Below are positions 2,185-61,790 of a stretch of 64,000 nucleotides of DNA, in pieces. Origin of the DNA: Eledone cirrhosa. Taxonomy: Eukaryota. Made by a program: the position numbers and the translations under genes. The notes under the pieces were generated by a model. That model did not search any database and was not told where the DNA came from. It saw only the letters and a list, made by a program, of their open reading frames with translations. Position 1 is the stretch's first letter; the number at the start of each line of letters is the position of its first letter. The stretch spans positions 41,106,001 through 41,170,000 of the forward strand of contig OZ024746.1 in the NCBI GenBank assembly GCA_964016885.1, given 5' to 3'.

Positions 2185-2914
2185 CTGTCAAAAGAATTAG
2201 AATAAAATAAGCTTATTATTTGTACTTTTAATATATTACAAGTCATCGAGTTCTTAACATTATTCAAATAGTTCATTGATGAGAAAAGAAAGCAAAAAAT
2301 TTCATTTCTTTTAGTATAATCCCAATGTAATTATCAAATCAGCCTTGCAGGTGTTGGTGCCTTGATAAAATGCACCTTGCACACTCTGAATTTGTTGGTC
2401 AAACAGAGACAATATAGGATAGAGATGACACTTTAGCCTTGTCGAAGACATAAAACCTCTCTAGGGTAGGTGCCAAAAAATGCACTCAGTACACTGTTAA
2501 TTGGCAAGTATTAGGAAGAGTATCTGAACATAGAAACCCCTACCAAAAATTGAATATACAAATAAGACATGATCCCATGACATGTCTAAAAACCGACACA
2601 AATTGTAATAGCCCATCCAGCGTAAAAAGCAGATATAAAATGATAATGATATTGTAAATAATTTTATTAGTTTCATAACTAACATATTGTGTCATTCTAG
2701 GTTGATTTCAACAGGAGTTGCCTTCAACTTTCATCTTTCCAGATAAGATACAATAATTGAAGAGTAAGAATGACTTTTCTTCCAATTTCACATTACAGAT
2801 CAAATAAAAACATTTGCTGAATCTGCATCAACTATTTTAGTATACCCAATTTTAAATTTCATTTTATTTAAACTGTACAAATATATAAATTTTATAACCC
2901 AATAAATATTTACA

Positions 2915-3047
2915 AAGAACAGTCAGTAGGCACCTCTTAACAAAAATACACCCCCACCCCATCCACACCACCCCTTTCGATGTAAAGTTATGTTGGTGCC
3001 ACAACATCCAGTCCGAAATAAATGAGGTCGTGTAGTAGGTGTCACGA

Positions 3048-3082
<35 letters not shown>

Positions 3083-3305
3083 AGTCCACGCTGTAATGTG
3101 GCCGTGTAGGCAACACGGTAAAAACCTTCCAGTCCACACTTTAAACGTGGTTGGTGTTAGGAAGGGCATCCAGCCATAGAAAACCCGCCAGACAGTCCTA
3201 TACGAGCAAGACAACCAATGTTGCCTCAAGTGGGAAAATTCCATCCAAACCCATGCAAGCGTGGAAGATGGACATTAAACGATGATGATGATGATGATGA
3301 TGATG
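2915..3305 (+). mobile_element. RTE LINE 3' UTR fragment with (GAT)n tail
   Basis: Closely similar to 56208-56696, the 3' UTR of the RTE element; ends in (gat)n. Confidence 0.85.
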
Positions 3306-54520: not shown

Positions 54521-54545
54521 ATAAGTAAGGCAATCAAATAAGTAT

Positions 54546-56696
54546 AATAAGTAAGGCAATCAAAGATATGAAGACGGGTAAGGCGGCTGGGCCTTCGGAA
54601 ATAGTTGCTGAGATGCTGAAGGCATCTGGTTCGGTGGGACACACCATGGTCACCCGGATAGTTAACCAAGTCGTACAGAATGGGGTTGTTCCGAAGGAAT
54701 GGCGTAGCAGCATCATCGTTAACTGCTATAAGGGAAAAGGAGATGCCCTAGATAGGAGTAACTATAGAGGCATTAAATTAATCGACCAGGTCATGAAGGT
54801 CACGGAAAAAGTAATAGCGCAACTAATCAGAGAGAGAATTGATCTAGATGAAATGCAGTTCGGGTTTGTGTCAGGCAAAAGTACCACAGACGCTCTTTTC
54901 ATTGTACGACAACTACAGGAGAAGTACCTAGCTAAAAGTAAACCCCTATACTTAGCTTTTGTCGACTTGGAGAAAGCCTTCGACAGAGTCCCCCGTTCCA
55001 TTATCTGGTGGTCTCTTAGAAAACTAGGTGTTGACGAATGGCTTGTGAGAGCTATACAAGCCATGTATAAAGAAACAGTCAGTAAGGTTAGAATTAACAA
55101 CGAATATAGTGAAGAGTTTAGCGTAAAAGTTGGTGTCCATCAGGGCTCTGTACTTAGCCCCCTACTATTTATTATTGCCCTTCAGGCTATAACAGAGGAG
55201 TTCAAGACCGGCTGCCCATGGGAACTCCTATACGCAGATGATCTAACGCTCATAGCTGAATCAATGACCGAACTAGAGAAGAAATTCCAAACGTGGAAGC
55301 ACGGCCTAGAATCAAAAGGCCTTAAAATTAACCTGGCTAAGACTAAAGTTCTAGTTTGTAGGAAAGAAAATAAGGCGGCGGTCCCATCGGGGAAATGGCC
55401 ATGCTCAGTGTGTAGGAAAGGCGTAGGTAGAAACTCCATTTTATGTCCCAAATGCAAAGTATGGGTGCATAAAAGATGTAGTGGGATCACAGGTAAGCTA
55501 ACTAAGAACATAGATTTTACATGTGGCCGGTGCTCTGGTGCAATAAGTAGCAGCAAGTGCCCACAAAATACTAGCTCCTTCAACTGCGCAGAGGGTTCTA
55601 TAGAAATAGTGGACAGCTTCCGTTATCTGGGTGACAAAATCAGCAGTGGGGGAGGGTGCTCTGAAAGTACAGTAGCTAGAGTCAGAACTGGATGGAAAAA
55701 GTTCAGAGAGCTTATACCACTATTAGCCGCTAGAGGGTTCTCCCTAAAAATGAAAGGCAGGTTATACGATGCCTGCATACGAACAGCAATGCTGCATGGC
55801 AGTGAGACCTGGGCATTGTGTGCAGAGGATATACGCAGACTAGAGAGGAACGAAGCTTGCATGCTCCGCTGGATGTGCAATAGTAATATACGTCAACGGC
55901 AAAGCATAAACGAACTAAGGAAAAAATTAGAAATAAGAGGGATCAGATGTTGTTTACTCGAGAGAAGGCTACGTTGGTACGGTCACGTGATGCGCATGAA
56001 AGACGACAGCTGTATAACAAAGTGCAGGGCAATAAAGATAGACGGTAGCCACGGAGTAGGCAGACCCAGAAAAACATGGGACGAGCTGATAAATTCCGAC
56101 CTCACACGCTTACACCTCTCCAAGACAATGTCACTGGACCGAGACCTTTGGCGGTACTCAGTAATAGAGAAGACCCGCCTTACCTAAATACAAAGTAAAA
56201 ACCTACTACAGTCAGTAGGCACCTCTATCAAAACACACCCCCGTCCCACCACCTCCACCCCACCCACACCGCCCCTTTCAATGTAAAGTTATGTTGGTCC
56301 CACAACATCCAGGCCGAAACAAATGAGATCGTGTAGGTGTCACGACAAAAAACACACAGTCCACGCTGTAAATGTGGCCGTGTAGGCAACACGGTAAAAA
56401 CCTCCCAGCCCCACACTGTAAATGTGGTTGGTGTTAGGAAGGGCATCCAGCTGTAGAAAACCCGCCAGACAGTCCACGCTGTAATGTGGCCGTGTAGGCA
56501 ACACGGTAAAAACCTCCCAGCCCCACACTGTAAATGTGGTTGGTGTTAGGAAGGGCATCCAACTGTAGAAAACCCGCCAGACAGTCCTATGCGAGCAAGA
56601 CAACCACTCTTGCCTCAAGTGGGAAAACCCCCGTCCAAACCCATGCAAGCGTGGAACACGGACGCTAAACCTGATGATGATGATGATGATGATGAT
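54546..56696 (+). mobile_element. 5'-truncated RTE-clade LINE inserted in (TA)n
   Basis: RT ORF, 3' UTR with a ~112-bp internal duplication (56357-56586) and (gat)n tail; TA runs on both sides. Confidence 0.92.
54568..56187 (+). CDS. RTE reverse transcriptase (no endonuclease part) with PHD-like insertion
   Basis: GKAAGP, NYRGIKL, FVDLEKAFDRV, GVHQGSVLSP, YADD, FRYLG, RLRWYGHV, GRPRKTW; uninterrupted for 539 aa. Confidence 0.95.
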   Translation: MKTGKAAGPSEIVAEMLKASGSVGHTMVTRIVNQVVQNGVVPKEWRSSIIVNCYKGKGDALDRSNYRGIKLIDQVMKVTEKVIAQLIRERIDLDEMQFGFVSGKSTTDALFIVRQLQEKYLAKSKPLYLAFVDLEKAFDRVPRSIIWWSLRKLGVDEWLVRAIQAMYKETVSKVRINNEYSEEFSVKVGVHQGSVLSPLLFIIALQAITEEFKTGCPWELLYADDLTLIAESMTELEKKFQTWKHGLESKGLKINLAKTKVLVCRKENKAAVPSGKWPCSVCRKGVGRNSILCPKCKVWVHKRCSGITGKLTKNIDFTCGRCSGAISSSKCPQNTSSFNCAEGSIEIVDSFRYLGDKISSGGGCSESTVARVRTGWKKFRELIPLLAARGFSLKMKGRLYDACIRTAMLHGSETWALCAEDIRRLERNEACMLRWMCNSNIRQRQSINELRKKLEIRGIRCCLLERRLRWYGHVMRMKDDSCITKCRAIKIDGSHGVGRPRKTWDELINSDLTRLHLSKTMSLDRDLWRYSVIEKTRLT

Positions 56697-56706
56697 ATAT
56701 ATATAT

Positions 56707-57536
56707 GAAAAAGTAAGTCCTTCATCAGTGACCCTCCAACCGTCCCAGGCATTTCATCGCTTTAAGGGCCATATACCTCAGGTTGGTGCGAACAACGGCT
56801 AAAAAAAGTCGTTGGGACACGTAAAAAAAGGGGACGTTAGGTTGGAGGGTCACTGATGAAGGACTTACTTTTTCATATGTTCCCATTTGCAACGCGCAGC
56901 TCCATTATTATCATATTTACACATATTTTTTCTTCTGCTGCCACCCGTCTGTTTCGTTCTTTGTATCTTTACCCTTTCTAGCAGTCTCTCTCTCTGTTAG
57001 CCTCCTCCTCAACTTTCACTCACTCATTCTCTGTCACTACCTCTCCTCCTCCTCCTCTTTCCTCCTCTTTCTTCCCGCTTGACCTTTCCGATTTCTTTTC
57101 TCGCGCGTTCTTGGCCAAGCCGGTATGAAATTTTTTTTCTCTCTCTCTCTCTCGTCTGCGACTTCACAGAACTTATGTTTACCGAATTCGTAGACCAGAC
57201 CCCTTCTTCTTCCCCCCGTTAGACCTGTGCGAAATTCCTTCCTTGCTCACATTTCAACCAGGTTTGATGGTCTTTTGTCTCTTGTTCACGATTTCACCGA
57301 GTTTATATTCATAGAAATCTGGGACTTGTCTCTTTCTTCTCACTTTCCGTTGCTTAAACCATTTTGTTTGTTCACCCTAACGTCCCCTTTTTTTACGTGT
57401 CCCAACGACTTTTTTTAGCCGTTGTTCGCACCAACCTGAGGTATATGGCCCTTAAAGCGATGAAATGCCTGGGACGGTTGGAGGGTCACTGATGAAGGAC
57501 TTACTTTTTCTTTCATATGTTCCCATTTGCAACGCG
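56707..57536 (+). mobile_element. Penelope-like non-coding element (inverted plus direct terminal repeats)
   Basis: 56707-56841 is inverted relative to 57376-57509; 56840-56896 is a direct repeat of 57476-57536; CT-rich body; repeats contain ctgatgaaggact. Confidence 0.7.
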
Positions 57537-57764: not shown

Positions 57765-58338
57765 ATATATATATATAAATGTATATATAGTGTATTTTGT
57801 AATACACTGTATGCTTAATTAAAAGCATTTCAAAGACCTTATGCTATTGTTTTAGAGTAGTGACAGTCTCACTTACTTTAAGTTTTCAGCTGTCACTACT
57901 CTAAAACAATAGCATAAGGTCTTCGAAATGCTTTTAATTAAGTATACAGTGTATTGCAAAATACACTATATATACATTCATATATATATCGGTATTTCAG
58001 AGCGCCAATTCTAATTTTCAATTTCTGCTTGACCGGCAACCACTCTGTATAATCAGTTCCTGATTATTACTAGAAATTCTATAAGAATCAAACATTCATG
58101 ATTTTCAGCAAACAGGTGGAGTACATGGCTCTGATAAGTACCAATCAGTACGAAACATAGCTCTGTCAGCTTTATTTCCCCTGTTTGCTGAAAATTTAAA
58201 GTAAGTGAGACTGTCACTACTCTAAAACAATAGCATAAGGTCTTTGAAATACTTTTAATTAAGCATACAGTGTATTGCAAAATACACTATATATACATTC
58301 ATATATATATCGCTATTTCAGAGCGCCAATTCTAATTT
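57765..58338 (+). mobile_element. Penelope/retrozyme-like non-coding element, ~321-bp unit with inverted 5' copy
   Basis: 57770-57890 is inverted relative to 58187-58310; direct repeats at 57890-58017 and 58211-58338; (TA)n flanks. Confidence 0.78.
58101..58195 (+). ncRNA. Type I hammerhead fold with CUGAUAA core
   Basis: ggct CTGATAA gtac-caatca-gtac GAAA ca-tagctc-tg TC agct, closed by the long helix ttttcagcaaacagg / cctgtttgctgaaaa. Confidence 0.75.
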
Positions 58339-58357
58339 ATATATATATATATGTATA

Positions 58358-58456
<99 letters not shown>

Positions 58457-58772
58457 TTATTAAAATAACAGATTAAAGTTTAAGCAAAGAATCGCTGCTT
58501 TCACCCTTAACAGGATCTTCTGAAACTAACAAAGTCAATCTGTAAACGCAGAAGTGGATATTTCAAAAAACGTTGCAACCGGAGGAAGACAGGAAGACGA
58601 TACTTTGGTTCGTGGAAACGTATAGGTTGCCAGTTTTGTCAGAATGGACGTGCACGGCATTAGAATCCTTAATAGAATGAATTCTATTCTTCATACGTTT
58701 CCACGAACCAAAGTATCGTCTTCCTGTTTTCCTCCCGTTGCAACGTTTTTTGAAATATCCACTTCTGCGTTT

Positions 58773-58848
58773 ACAGATTGACTTTGTTAGTTTCAGAAGA
58801 TTCCGTTAAGGGTGAAAGCAGCGATTCATTGCTTAAACTTTAATCTGT
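58773..58848 (+). ncRNA. Type I hammerhead fold with CAGAAGA core (5' pLTR)
   Basis: Same fold 660 nt upstream; stem II variant tcc/ggg still pairs. A third copy lies on the minus strand at 58468-58543. Confidence 0.65.
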
Positions 58849-58993
58849 TATTTTAATAAATATTTGCTCTACGGTTCTTATATATTTGATATATATTTAT
58901 CCTTATCGAGCCCTCTTTGGATTTTAGTCTTCAAATTTATTATTGTTACTATTTGGCTCCCTCGGTTGAGCACTCTACTGACTTATATTCATC

Positions 58994-59413
58994 ATGCAGA
59001 ATCAACATCTGAATATTTCTACAAATAACATATCCGTACCAAGCATGAAAACATATCTAAAACTCCTGATACAGAAAACAGACGCGTTCATTAAAAGGCT
59101 GCGTTGGCGTGCCTTTTATTTCGATAATCCGCGAAAAGCAGACAACAAACAGGATAAATTTGGATTTAAAACCTATAATAACCCCCCGTGTAACCCAGCA
59201 TTGCTACCCTTCGAAAATGATGTCTTGGAACTCATTCGGAGTATCAAATTTCGGATTAGGAGCAATTCCTTCCAGCAAGACCTGAAGAATAGAATTCGTT
59301 CTATTAAGGATTCTAATGCCGTGCACGTCCATTCCGACAGAACTGGCAACCTATACGTTTCCACGAACCAAAGTATCGTCTTCCTGTCTTCCTCCGGTTG
59401 CAACGTTTTTTGA
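58994..59413 (+). CDS. N-terminal fragment of a Penelope-like element protein
   Basis: LIQKTDAFIKRLRWRAFYF, KFGFKT..PP, FENDVLELIRSIKFR and SDRTGNLY (DKG/DKT-type motif) resemble the PLE pre-RT region. Homology ends at about 59353, where the repeat begins. Confidence 0.75.
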   Translation: MQNQHLNISTNNISVPSMKTYLKLLIQKTDAFIKRLRWRAFYFDNPRKADNKQDKFGFKTYNNPPCNPALLPFENDVLELIRSIKFRIRSNSFQQDLKNRIRSIKDSNAVHVHSDRTGNLYVSTNQSIVFLSSSGCNVF

Positions 59414-59432
59414 AATATCCACTTCTGCGTTT

Positions 59433-59508
59433 ACAGATTGACTTTGTTAGTTTCAGAAGATCCTGTTAAGGGTGAAAGCAGTGATTCTTTGCTTAAACTT
59501 TAATCTGT
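59433..59508 (+). ncRNA. Type I hammerhead fold with CAGAAGA core (3' pLTR)
   Basis: agttt CAGAAGA t-cct-gttaa-ggg-t GAAA gca-gtgattctt-tgc TT aaact; distal stem I acagattga / ttaatctgt. Confidence 0.68.
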
Positions 59509-60392
59509 TATTTTAATAAATATTTGCTCTACGGTTCTTATATATTTGATATATATTTATCCTTATCGAGCCCTCTTTGGATTTTAGTCTTCAAATTTAT
59601 TATTATTACTATATATATATATATATATATATATATTCATTTGTTAAGCAAAACAAAACCACAAATTTCACAAGGAAGACATTATTAAAAGATTGTCAAC
59701 ATAGTTTTAGTTTAATGTATGGAATGTAAATAATAATACTAATAATTGTTTCTACTTTTGGCACAAAGCCAGCAATTACCCAGTGTATTACTGGTACTTT
59801 ATTTTGTCGACCCCGTAAGGATGAAAGGCAAAGTTAACCTTGGCGGGATTTGAACTCAGAATGGCAAGGGCCGTAACTCTATGCATCAAAGCATGGCATC
59901 CGACCTTCTACTGATACTGCCAATCCCCTAATGTCTGTTTACAATTGTTTCGCTACTCCATATAATGTTTCTGGATCAAATGATTATAGATCATTATTGA
60001 TCTGGATTGGCAGAATTGGTGGAGGGTTGGACATGCTTTCCAGCATAGTTACGTCCCTTTACGATCTGAGTTCAAATCCCGCCAAGGTTAACTTTGCCTT
60101 TCATCCTTACGAGGTCGATAAAATAAAGTACCAGTAATGTACTGGGTAATTGCTGGCCTTGTGCCAAAAGTAGAAACAATTATTGATCTGGTTCAGTTGA
60201 AGATAATTAACTTAGGTAAAATTGGAGCAGTTCGTCGGAACTTCAAAAGGAATATAAATTAAGGTAAAAAAGATGGTTACATGAATGTAATGTTCCATAT
60301 ATTGGTATTTCATTATTGTCTGCCATTGTACATTGAGCACATGCCTTTACGCTTTGGCTTCTAACTAATTCACCAATCTCTCTTCTCCTCTC

Positions 60393-60699: not shown

Positions 60700-61790
60700 C
60701 ATTTATTTCACCAATTATCATGGTCCTTCATCATCTCTATTGTTAGGTTTAGCTTCTTGAGATGGGTTTTCACTACTTCATCCTGTTCGATTAGGGTTTC
60801 CTCTACCACAGGTTTCTTCTACTTTAAGTGTTCAGTACTTCTTTGTGCAGCTGTCAGTCTCTATATTTATCACATGTCTACACTATTGTAATCTCTCTTG
60901 ATCATGATATCTGATTCCTCTTATACTCAGTTTTTCTCAAAGCACATTTGTATTTCTTTGTCAAACATGCTAACATTACAACATCTACTGGAACATGCTC
61001 ACTTTTTTTCTAAGCTTTGCAAATCCTCTGCATTCAAGACCCATGTCTCACTACCCTGCAGCATCATGGTTTATATACAAGCATCACATAATCTACTCTT
61101 CATTCTGAGAAAGAAACTCTTTGTTTCCAGCAGAAGAAATATTTTCTTAAATTTTCGTTCTTACTCTAGCTATTCTACTTTTAGAACACCGACCTTCAAC
61201 GCAGATTAGGTCACCTAGTTAACAAAAGTTGTCAACTACTAGAGAGTTGTCTGAGCATATGAGTGACTCTATTTCTCTTAGTGTCTATTACTCCTATGTA
61301 TCTGCTCTATATGAAGTCTATATTCTTCATTAGTCTGCCTATGATCCTACTACATCTCTTGTACATAAATAATTTACATTAGGTACTCAGTATGGAATTC
61401 CTCCCTGCTCCTTTTCTGCATACTGAACAAGGCTATTTCTCCGATAGTTTCAGGGATCCATTTTTTTTTCCTATTTACTAAAACTTTAAATTTTGCTAAG
61501 CTTACTTTGAGGCCATTCCATTCCAGGTTTTGCTTTTGTGCCTGGAATTTCATCTCTAACACTTCTACAGATTCAGTTTTAAGGACTAGGTCATCAGCAT
61601 ATAGGAGTTCCCTTGGACAGTTAATCTTAAACTCATTTGTTATGGCTTAGAAAATAATGATAAAAAGAAGAGTGCTGACAACAGAGTCCTGATGGACTTT
61701 TACCTGCAAGCTAAATTTGTTGCTGTACTCATTGCTAATCCTCAACTTGCTGATTGCACCTCTGTACATGACTCCCCCTCTACCAACTTC
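60700..61790 (-). pseudogene. Degraded RTE LINE related to 54568-56187
   Basis: Minus-strand remnants ELLYADDLVL, PCSVCRKGAGRNSIL and MLQGSETW, with many stops. Confidence 0.8.

Follow-up and report, generated by a model that had tools for sequence, protein, structure and literature searches.

The window, a 64,000-nt stretch of the Eledone cirrhosa assembly GCA_964016885.1 (contig OZ024746.1, positions 41,106,001 to 41,170,000, forward strand), contains an insertion of 1.4 units with two hammerheads in tandem. In the unit numbering used here, position p corresponds to window nucleotide 58692+p in the first repeat and to 59352+p in the second. The insertion and its flanks comprise the following features.

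58338..58452, strand not given: (TA)n target, left flank
58453..58693, minus strand: inverted arm, in which the junction separates repeat positions 3-171 from the final 70 nt of the ORF piece
~58516-58522, minus strand: core of a third hammerhead copy, within the inverted arm
58694..58952, plus strand: first pseudo-LTR copy, unit positions 2-260, starting at most 2 nt from the junction position
58713..59056, plus strand: predicted long-range RNA domain, predicted on intact family copies
58789..58839, plus strand: hammerhead-like motif 1, CAGA core at 58794, with a private change that weakens stem II
58994..59413, plus strand: 139-aa frame, made up of Hydra-clade codons 1-120, one codon across the junction and 18 read-through residues
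59354..59356, plus strand: private junction of ORF position 662/663 to repeat position 3/4, one base being common to both sides
59355..59612, plus strand: second pseudo-LTR copy, positions 3-260, terminating in (TA)n at the position-260 end of the family
59449..59499, plus strand: hammerhead-like motif 2, core at 59454, with a private CpG change in stem II that is also found in the inverted arm
59610..59636, strand not given: (TA)n target, right flank

The two direct repeats of the original prediction were confirmed (58693-58952 and 59353-59612, 260 nt, 97% identity, spacing 660). When reverse-complemented, the inverted arm (58453-58693) matches 59283-59523 at 98% identity; it terminates in (TA)n at the position-171 end of the family. 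The ORF-to-repeat junction, which stands in for approximately 2.6 kb of the parent unit, is also found in this arm, as had been predicted, with its coordinate corrected from 59353/59354 to 59355, shared base included. At position 112, a CpG, the second repeat and the inverted arm have a derived base which is absent from the first repeat and is present in 9 of 341 family copies. Within the 70-nt ORF tail, zero derived changes are common to both arms.

Other elements were observed in the window. A separate multi-copy retrozyme-like family is represented at 57767-58338, 115 bp left of the insertion, by a 321-nt tandem unit with a hammerhead, whose core in this family is UUGAUAA (U3-A8 covariant), the window copy having a private C at 58131. 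Insertions of this family are flanked by (TA)n, carry an inverted arm on the 5' side, terminate on the 3' side at unit position 100 or 126-128, and reach at most approximately 3.6 units. Of 2205 candidates in the genome the best 39, which were scored, match at 93-97% and show no seam in the unit, and no convincing ORF remnant was found in this family. The element at 56699-57536, with 146-nt inverted arms, a short direct repeat 636-640 nt apart and microsatellite flanks, has a Penelope-like architecture in which a complete hammerhead was not seen. At 54529-56187 a 552-aa open frame encodes a non-LTR-type reverse transcriptase, which we take from its motifs to be RTE-like, and a decayed relative of it lies on the minus strand near 60900-61650.

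A search of the animal's own genome (3.0 Gb) returned 4211 candidates for the insertion. Among the best 40, which were scored, the other top-scoring matches span positions 3-663 and then continue into a longer ORF, and examination of 20 loci with wider flanks gave a parent unit of approximately 3.26 kb. This search and the motifs of the intact ORF uphold the proposed derivation from a Penelope-like element, a 23-mer from the repeat having 11,537 exact matches in the genome. In the 20 loci the arms run to a (TA)n end at position 171 or at position 260, and many of these insertions have an inverted arm on the 5' side. Across a set of 413 arm pieces, 3' ends fall at 170-171 in 143 cases and at 260 in 204. 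The inverted arm, ends and target of the window insertion are thus ordinary for the family.

The intact parent ORF (locus L046, 709 aa) contains the motifs DKT, RWR and YRDD and, by eye, a CxCX5C linker followed by a C-terminal GIY-YIG-type endonuclease region with CxxC and CxH and with no CCHH; a Pfam search of the parent and 139-aa proteins matched no family. The Hydra clade is defined, in the part of the source that treats it, by DKT, an RWK motif, the CxCX5C linker and an endonuclease with CxxC and CxH (PMC8557442), and on the basis of these motifs the parent is assigned as a Hydra-clade (DKT) Penelope-like element. The DRT motif of the window copy had been thought to recall a Naiad-like clade. 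It is a private change of DKT, which is read in all 29 full-length copies and in the inverted arm, and Naiad elements are characterised by a DKA motif, an N-terminal endonuclease and no canonical hammerhead, whereas the parent element has DKT and a C-terminal endonuclease region.

The 3' untranslated part of L046 (unit positions 3013-3267) contains a 134-nt internal duplication of approximately 80% identity, both copies of which terminate in an acceptor-like site. The parent family also carries an intron of 720-750 nt. It has two GT donors and a single AG acceptor, the latter lying immediately ahead of the repeat. Intron retention is well known in Penelope elements; precise loss was seen here in some insertions (2 of 30 consecutive copies), and the intron-related loci are L132, L145, L091, L108 and L116 (unit positions 2510 or 2542 to 3265, approximate for L116). 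The spliced copies show that the template was sense-strand, at least for those insertions. Loci L134, L136, L140, L153 and L160 form an older subfamily, approximately 85% identical, whose copies all begin near unit position 3222-3229 and terminate at 170 or 260, and which is possibly a fixed short non-autonomous form. In L086 a 2-kb inverted duplication of host DNA surrounds an assembly gap and is likely an assembly artefact.

The 139-aa ORF (58994-59413) had been described as one that the element keeps. The open frame does exist; its last 18 residues are read-through into the repeat, the frame stopping 59 nt into the second copy. Comparison of the first 119 codons with the 29 full-length copies revealed 8 private changes, 6 of which are non-synonymous against a chance expectation of 76%; these include K11N, P14S and K116R (the last producing DRT) and affect the conserved KNIP and DKT motifs. 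Ordinary full-length copies are equally open to codon 120 in 22 of 29 cases. This pattern of change is that of an ORF remnant decaying neutrally, with no sign of a maintained mini-protein, and the suggestion that the frame is kept is not supported. A self-propagating non-autonomous family with a functional mini-protein would fit the open frame and a unit length divisible by three, but it is highly improbable given the single locus, the early stop in the second repeat, the neutral changes and the damaged conserved residues, and an open frame is expected from the youth of the insertion.

With respect to the ribozymes, a descriptor scan confirmed the predicted type I hammerhead fold in both repeats, with predicted cuts after 58834 and 59494. 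Three helices are present, closed by stem I (stem I of 5 bp, stem II of 3-4 bp, stem III of 4 bp), with a CAGAAGA core instead of CUGANGA, a CUU cut triplet and a U.U pair closing the 3-bp stem II, in which each window hammerhead copy has a private G.U change. An Rfam scan gave no hammerhead match within the element, and the 71-nt hammerhead pieces fold no better than shuffles (z +0.94 and +0.36). Distant relatives were sought by metagenome scan, in which a single protein found no relative and an alignment query recovered them; of the 76 loci, the 49 covering the ORF start were tested. The descriptor matched 32 of these 49 relatives, compared with 2 of the 98 regions reversed as controls. Where a relative has a 5' match, the hammerhead lies mostly 170-225 nt before the ORF (200 in the window), and the U.U closure of stem II is common to 11 of the 32. 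The matching place and shape indicate that the window hammerhead is, as judged from sequence, a true homologue of the hammerheads of the clade.

The core reads CUGA in all 32 of these relatives and CAGA in 315 of 341 copies of the Eledone family. A U4-to-A change lowers hammerhead activity, and a literature search for data on this change found nothing useful. There was no accumulation of ends at the predicted cut, which accounts for 1 of 60 5' ends lying between positions 40 and 160 and for 2 of 413 3' arm ends. This agrees with the use of uncut RNA as template described in the available part of a study of a related enzyme (PMC11167929). It appears that the hammerhead remained uncut inside the unit and probably was not the maker of the joint.

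The junction itself was then found to be restricted to the insertion: its pattern has 2 matches in the 3.0-Gb assembly, both within the window insertion and the same at 1 and 3 mismatches, and a 100-nt DNA search agrees, with 2 junction-spanning matches among the best 40 of 1359 candidates. Breaks at ORF 655-667 gave 16 matches, of which only the insertion's two join the repeat. The others comprise indels and a 61-nt deletion, three copies belonging to another family, and a single end in (TA)n. In four public runs (DNA or unlabelled), a kind of data from which rare variants drop, no listed contig or read bridges the junction and no listed piece has the window's private base at 59340. No RNA run appeared among the sequencing runs listed. 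The original prediction was of a retrozyme-like derivative with further copies, and it named a junction unique to this locus as evidence to the contrary; this locus alone was found by the genome search. The window insertion is thus not a multi-copy family with a shared unit, which is what a non-LTR retrozyme would be, and a 660-nt monomer RNA from the locus is possible on paper.

One explanation for such a locus is that it is the daughter of an older deleted DNA copy, lost or unassembled, possibly made by way of a hammerhead-cut 660-nt circle; this amounts to the original prediction minus its protein. A master with two slightly different repeats accounts for the position-112 change, two hammerheads flank the unit, and metazoan retrozymes work in this way according to the accessible part of their description (PMC7229834). 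However, no master or sister copy is present in the assembly, no derived change unites the arms in the ORF tail, the core is CAGA in nearly all copies, and the four public runs weigh, weakly, in the same direction. This explanation is considered unlikely.

Junctions of similar form were found elsewhere in the genome. At least 40 sibling insertions have the ORF start (~346-387) joined back to the repeat start (~-28 to +39), giving units of 330-390 nt, of which the 660-nt unit of the window is a long outlier. The class came to light on examination of 30 consecutive ordinary copies and of 75 loci out of the 95, besides the window insertion, in which the base preceding position 3 is unusual, and the sibling samples were chosen by junction-centred searches. 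In the siblings noticed first, the ORF part stops near 367-377. When one sibling junction was used as query, all 40 of the best 40 scored candidates span it, and a gapped junction pattern matched 43 times, compared with 7 times when reversed as a control. Selection of breaks only at ORF 365-377 also returned 43 matches; 29 run into repeat positions ~-28 to +39, 11 are small indels, 1 is unrelated, 2 are of unsettled class and none is a (TA)n end. Selection of breaks only at repeat positions 7-14 returned 238 matches, 69 of which were examined (the first 30, and 39 from the 70 that followed once evident indels and previously sampled loci had been set aside), and gave 12 ORF-joined insertions, 11 from ORF 346-387 and one doubtful near 1805. 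By rough extrapolation the class makes up approximately 1-2% of family copies.

Omission of 12 loci with indel-distorted junctions or passenger copies left 40 clean insertions with 30 junction types, the probability that two insertions share a type being 0.022. Within an insertion, the junction recurs: of 11 insertions with more than one pass, 9 (L164, L167, L170, L181, L212, L242, L247, L262 and L283) show the same junction each time, while in L168 it is the same in 3 of 4 passes with one lacking a base, and in L229 it is altered. In 7 of the 11 it lies on both inverted arms, like that of the window. Junctions which are private and yet repeated are the expected trace of reverse transcription round a single circular or end-joined RNA. 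In L167, L181 and L262 each arm has sequence missing from the other, so that neither can be a copy of the other and both required a template running more than once round the unit. Arms stop 8-13 nt past the joint in L212 and L242. Since the siblings point to an RNA template, the earlier reading that the deletion predates the insertion stands in so far as the junction existed before either arm was written, and an older DNA copy is not required.

The fraction of derived variants in common is 0.35 for same-junction pairs against 0.30 for others, which favours an independent origin of insertions of the same type. Same-type pairs are nevertheless commoner than shuffling predicts (17 vs 7, p 0.01), so that a number of insertions may be the offspring of earlier ones. 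L166 and L187, with junction and variants in common, may be such a parent and daughter; this possible re-mobilisation is a further point for descent from a DNA master. Microhomology at the junctions is slightly raised (mean 1.23 vs 0.90 nt shuffled, p 0.02; none in 14 of 40) and leaves the choice between ligation or a circle and enzyme jumping undecided.

Several candidate patterns were rejected. The junction of 372 with 3 was considered as a spreading family, but the five loci L104, L176, L183, L185 and L229 have both flanks in common and are thus passengers of a larger repeat. An excess of 5' ends at position 3 was also dismissed, the approximately 25 true breaks fitting, by rough estimate, the background given the size of the family. 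An origin of the junction by splicing or back-splicing was rejected, as the skipped part is without GT-AG ends; a working splice acceptor does lie 4-5 nt upstream. It should also be noted that a repeated junction of a smaller kind occurs in the L221:1409-1713 region and in L239, where a very short tandem duplication covers repeat positions ~13-62.

The window insertion matches the sibling class in the 5' side of its junction (3/4), its arm ends, its one-base overlap and a forward arm that stops at most 2 nt from the joint. In other respects a different origin could be argued, in which a full-length RNA was the template, 2.6 kb of it was passed over by the enzyme, and the inverted arm then arose by copying from the new DNA strand or was made alike by gene conversion. 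The forward arm here contains the whole of the inverted arm, which would allow copying from new DNA; the position-112 change is common to the inverted arm and second repeat only, a pattern which, with a single RNA template, would call for conversion afterwards or for the same change to have arisen twice; and ordinary internal deletions occur in L393, L116, L121 and L127. Against this, two coincidences are needed, as the start of the skip and the stop of the forward arm both fall at position 3, and that position lies inside the zone of clustered sibling junctions. Many family insertions, among them three siblings with repeated junctions, have non-nested arms, which implies that arms are normally copied from RNA. 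An internal deletion of this kind is therefore regarded as rather improbable.

A possible reason for the clustering of the sibling junctions was found in the predicted structure of the RNA. Folding of five natural copies predicted stems between positions 21-38 and 349-364 and between 53-78 and 302-337, with pair probabilities of approximately 0.9 in most contexts and weaker ones in L050, and the sibling junctions sit just outside the outer predicted stem. Over the first 400 nt, 40 pairs with a span of at least 250 nt are expected, whereas the other 11 segments of the unit have at most 20, and none of 40 shuffles reached 40 long-range pairs. In 10 of 13 distant relatives the matching region lies above both ORF-interior controls. 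In overall folding energy the 421-nt region is unremarkable (z -0.06), and only the long-range pairing stands out. The stem is a predicted one, resting on folding and not on covariation. The 3' end of the window piece, at 662, is far from the 346-387 cluster, with no other copy breaking there into the repeat, and the predicted stem does not explain it.

On balance it is somewhat probable that the window holds a one-off, decaying insertion of an abundant Hydra-clade Penelope-like element, copied from a short end-joined RNA piece (positions ~3-662). Such RNA pieces would be leftovers trimmed towards a base-paired domain holding the 5' and 3' ends together, usually 330-390 nt in size and 660 nt in the window. 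The ends would either have been joined as a closed circle or crossed by the enzyme jumping from end to end, the element protein being supplied by a full-length copy. Synthesis would have started internally at 260 and 171 on the two target strands, one copy running 1.4 rounds and stopping at the joint and the other crossing the joint once, after which the two copies would have been joined head to head. A broader proposal can be put forward only tentatively and is doubtful as it stands: that in this genome the Penelope reverse transcriptase routinely copies single closed RNA circles of 330-390 nt (660 nt in the window), formed independently of the ribozyme from the joined trimmed ends of a conserved base-paired domain, and that each such insertion is both a one-circle fossil and a newborn proto-retrozyme. 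Given an active ribozyme and a promoter, such a tandem unit with its hammerhead would then lack nothing further to found a retrozyme family of the type of the neighbouring 321-nt one.

The window locus itself is a dead by-product and its interest lies in its class, which bears on whether Penelope enzymes read round their template and on the birth of non-LTR retrozymes from Penelope repeats. No description of the private but repeated junction pattern was found in the open-access literature, supplements being outside the scope of the search. Compared with Hydra-clade elements, as presented in the accessible part of their description (PMC8557442), the family is alike in DKT, the RWR form of RWK, CxCX5C, the endonuclease region and (TA)n, and also in partial tandems, an inverted 5' arm and an optional 3' extension. 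It differs in its CAGA hammerhead core and in 3' ends 89 nt apart as against a 'tail' of 30-40 nt, and the window copy is a circularly permuted 660-nt piece rather than a 5'-truncated one. That source also describes Chlamys non-autonomous elements such as MRC1, which are likewise short Penelope derivatives with pseudo-LTRs and head-to-tail copies; these are true multi-copy families, unlike the window insertion (PMC8557442).

For Anolis Poseidon, two internal start sites and extension of both target strands were reported in vitro, with uncut RNA as the template and a protein requirement for the ORF start (Frangieh et al., 2024; PMC11167929). The same internal starts are proposed here for an element of a different clade, and in the portion of that report available no permuted or repeated junctions are described. 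Ribozyme-cut circles have been proposed, in the sections of the two papers concerned, as templates for Penelope tandems (Cervera and de la Pena, 2014; PMC4209133) and for retrozymes (Cervera and de la Pena, 2020; PMC7229834). The present model resembles the former in deriving more-than-unit copies from circular or end-joined RNA. As set out in that part of the paper, hammerhead cleavage gives a seamless joint at the cut (PMC4209133), whereas the joints here are heterogeneous, their upstream side lying approximately 100-140 nt from the cut and their downstream side 200-240 nt from it (520 in the window).

Retrozymes have also been tied to pseudo-LTRs by phylogeny, and DNA-level local tandem amplification proposed for their birth, in the accessible text of a recent preprint (Li, Clavereau and Pollet, 2026; bioRxiv 10.64898/2026.07.22.740005). 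The insertions described here suggest a one-step, RNA-level route to retrozymes without a ribozyme cut. In so far as non-LTR retrozymes are covered by the consulted parts of the two sources (PMC7229834; bioRxiv 10.64898/2026.07.22.740005), the class shares with them a short tandem unit, a type I hammerhead in each repeat and an origin from Penelope pseudo-LTRs, and the 330-390-nt units of the siblings are within their size range. It differs from them in that each insertion has its own junction, with the joint off the ribozyme cut and an unselected ORF remnant, while the window insertion comes close to the retrozyme as defined in the available text of the preprint, namely two consecutive units with a hammerhead (bioRxiv 10.64898/2026.07.22.740005).
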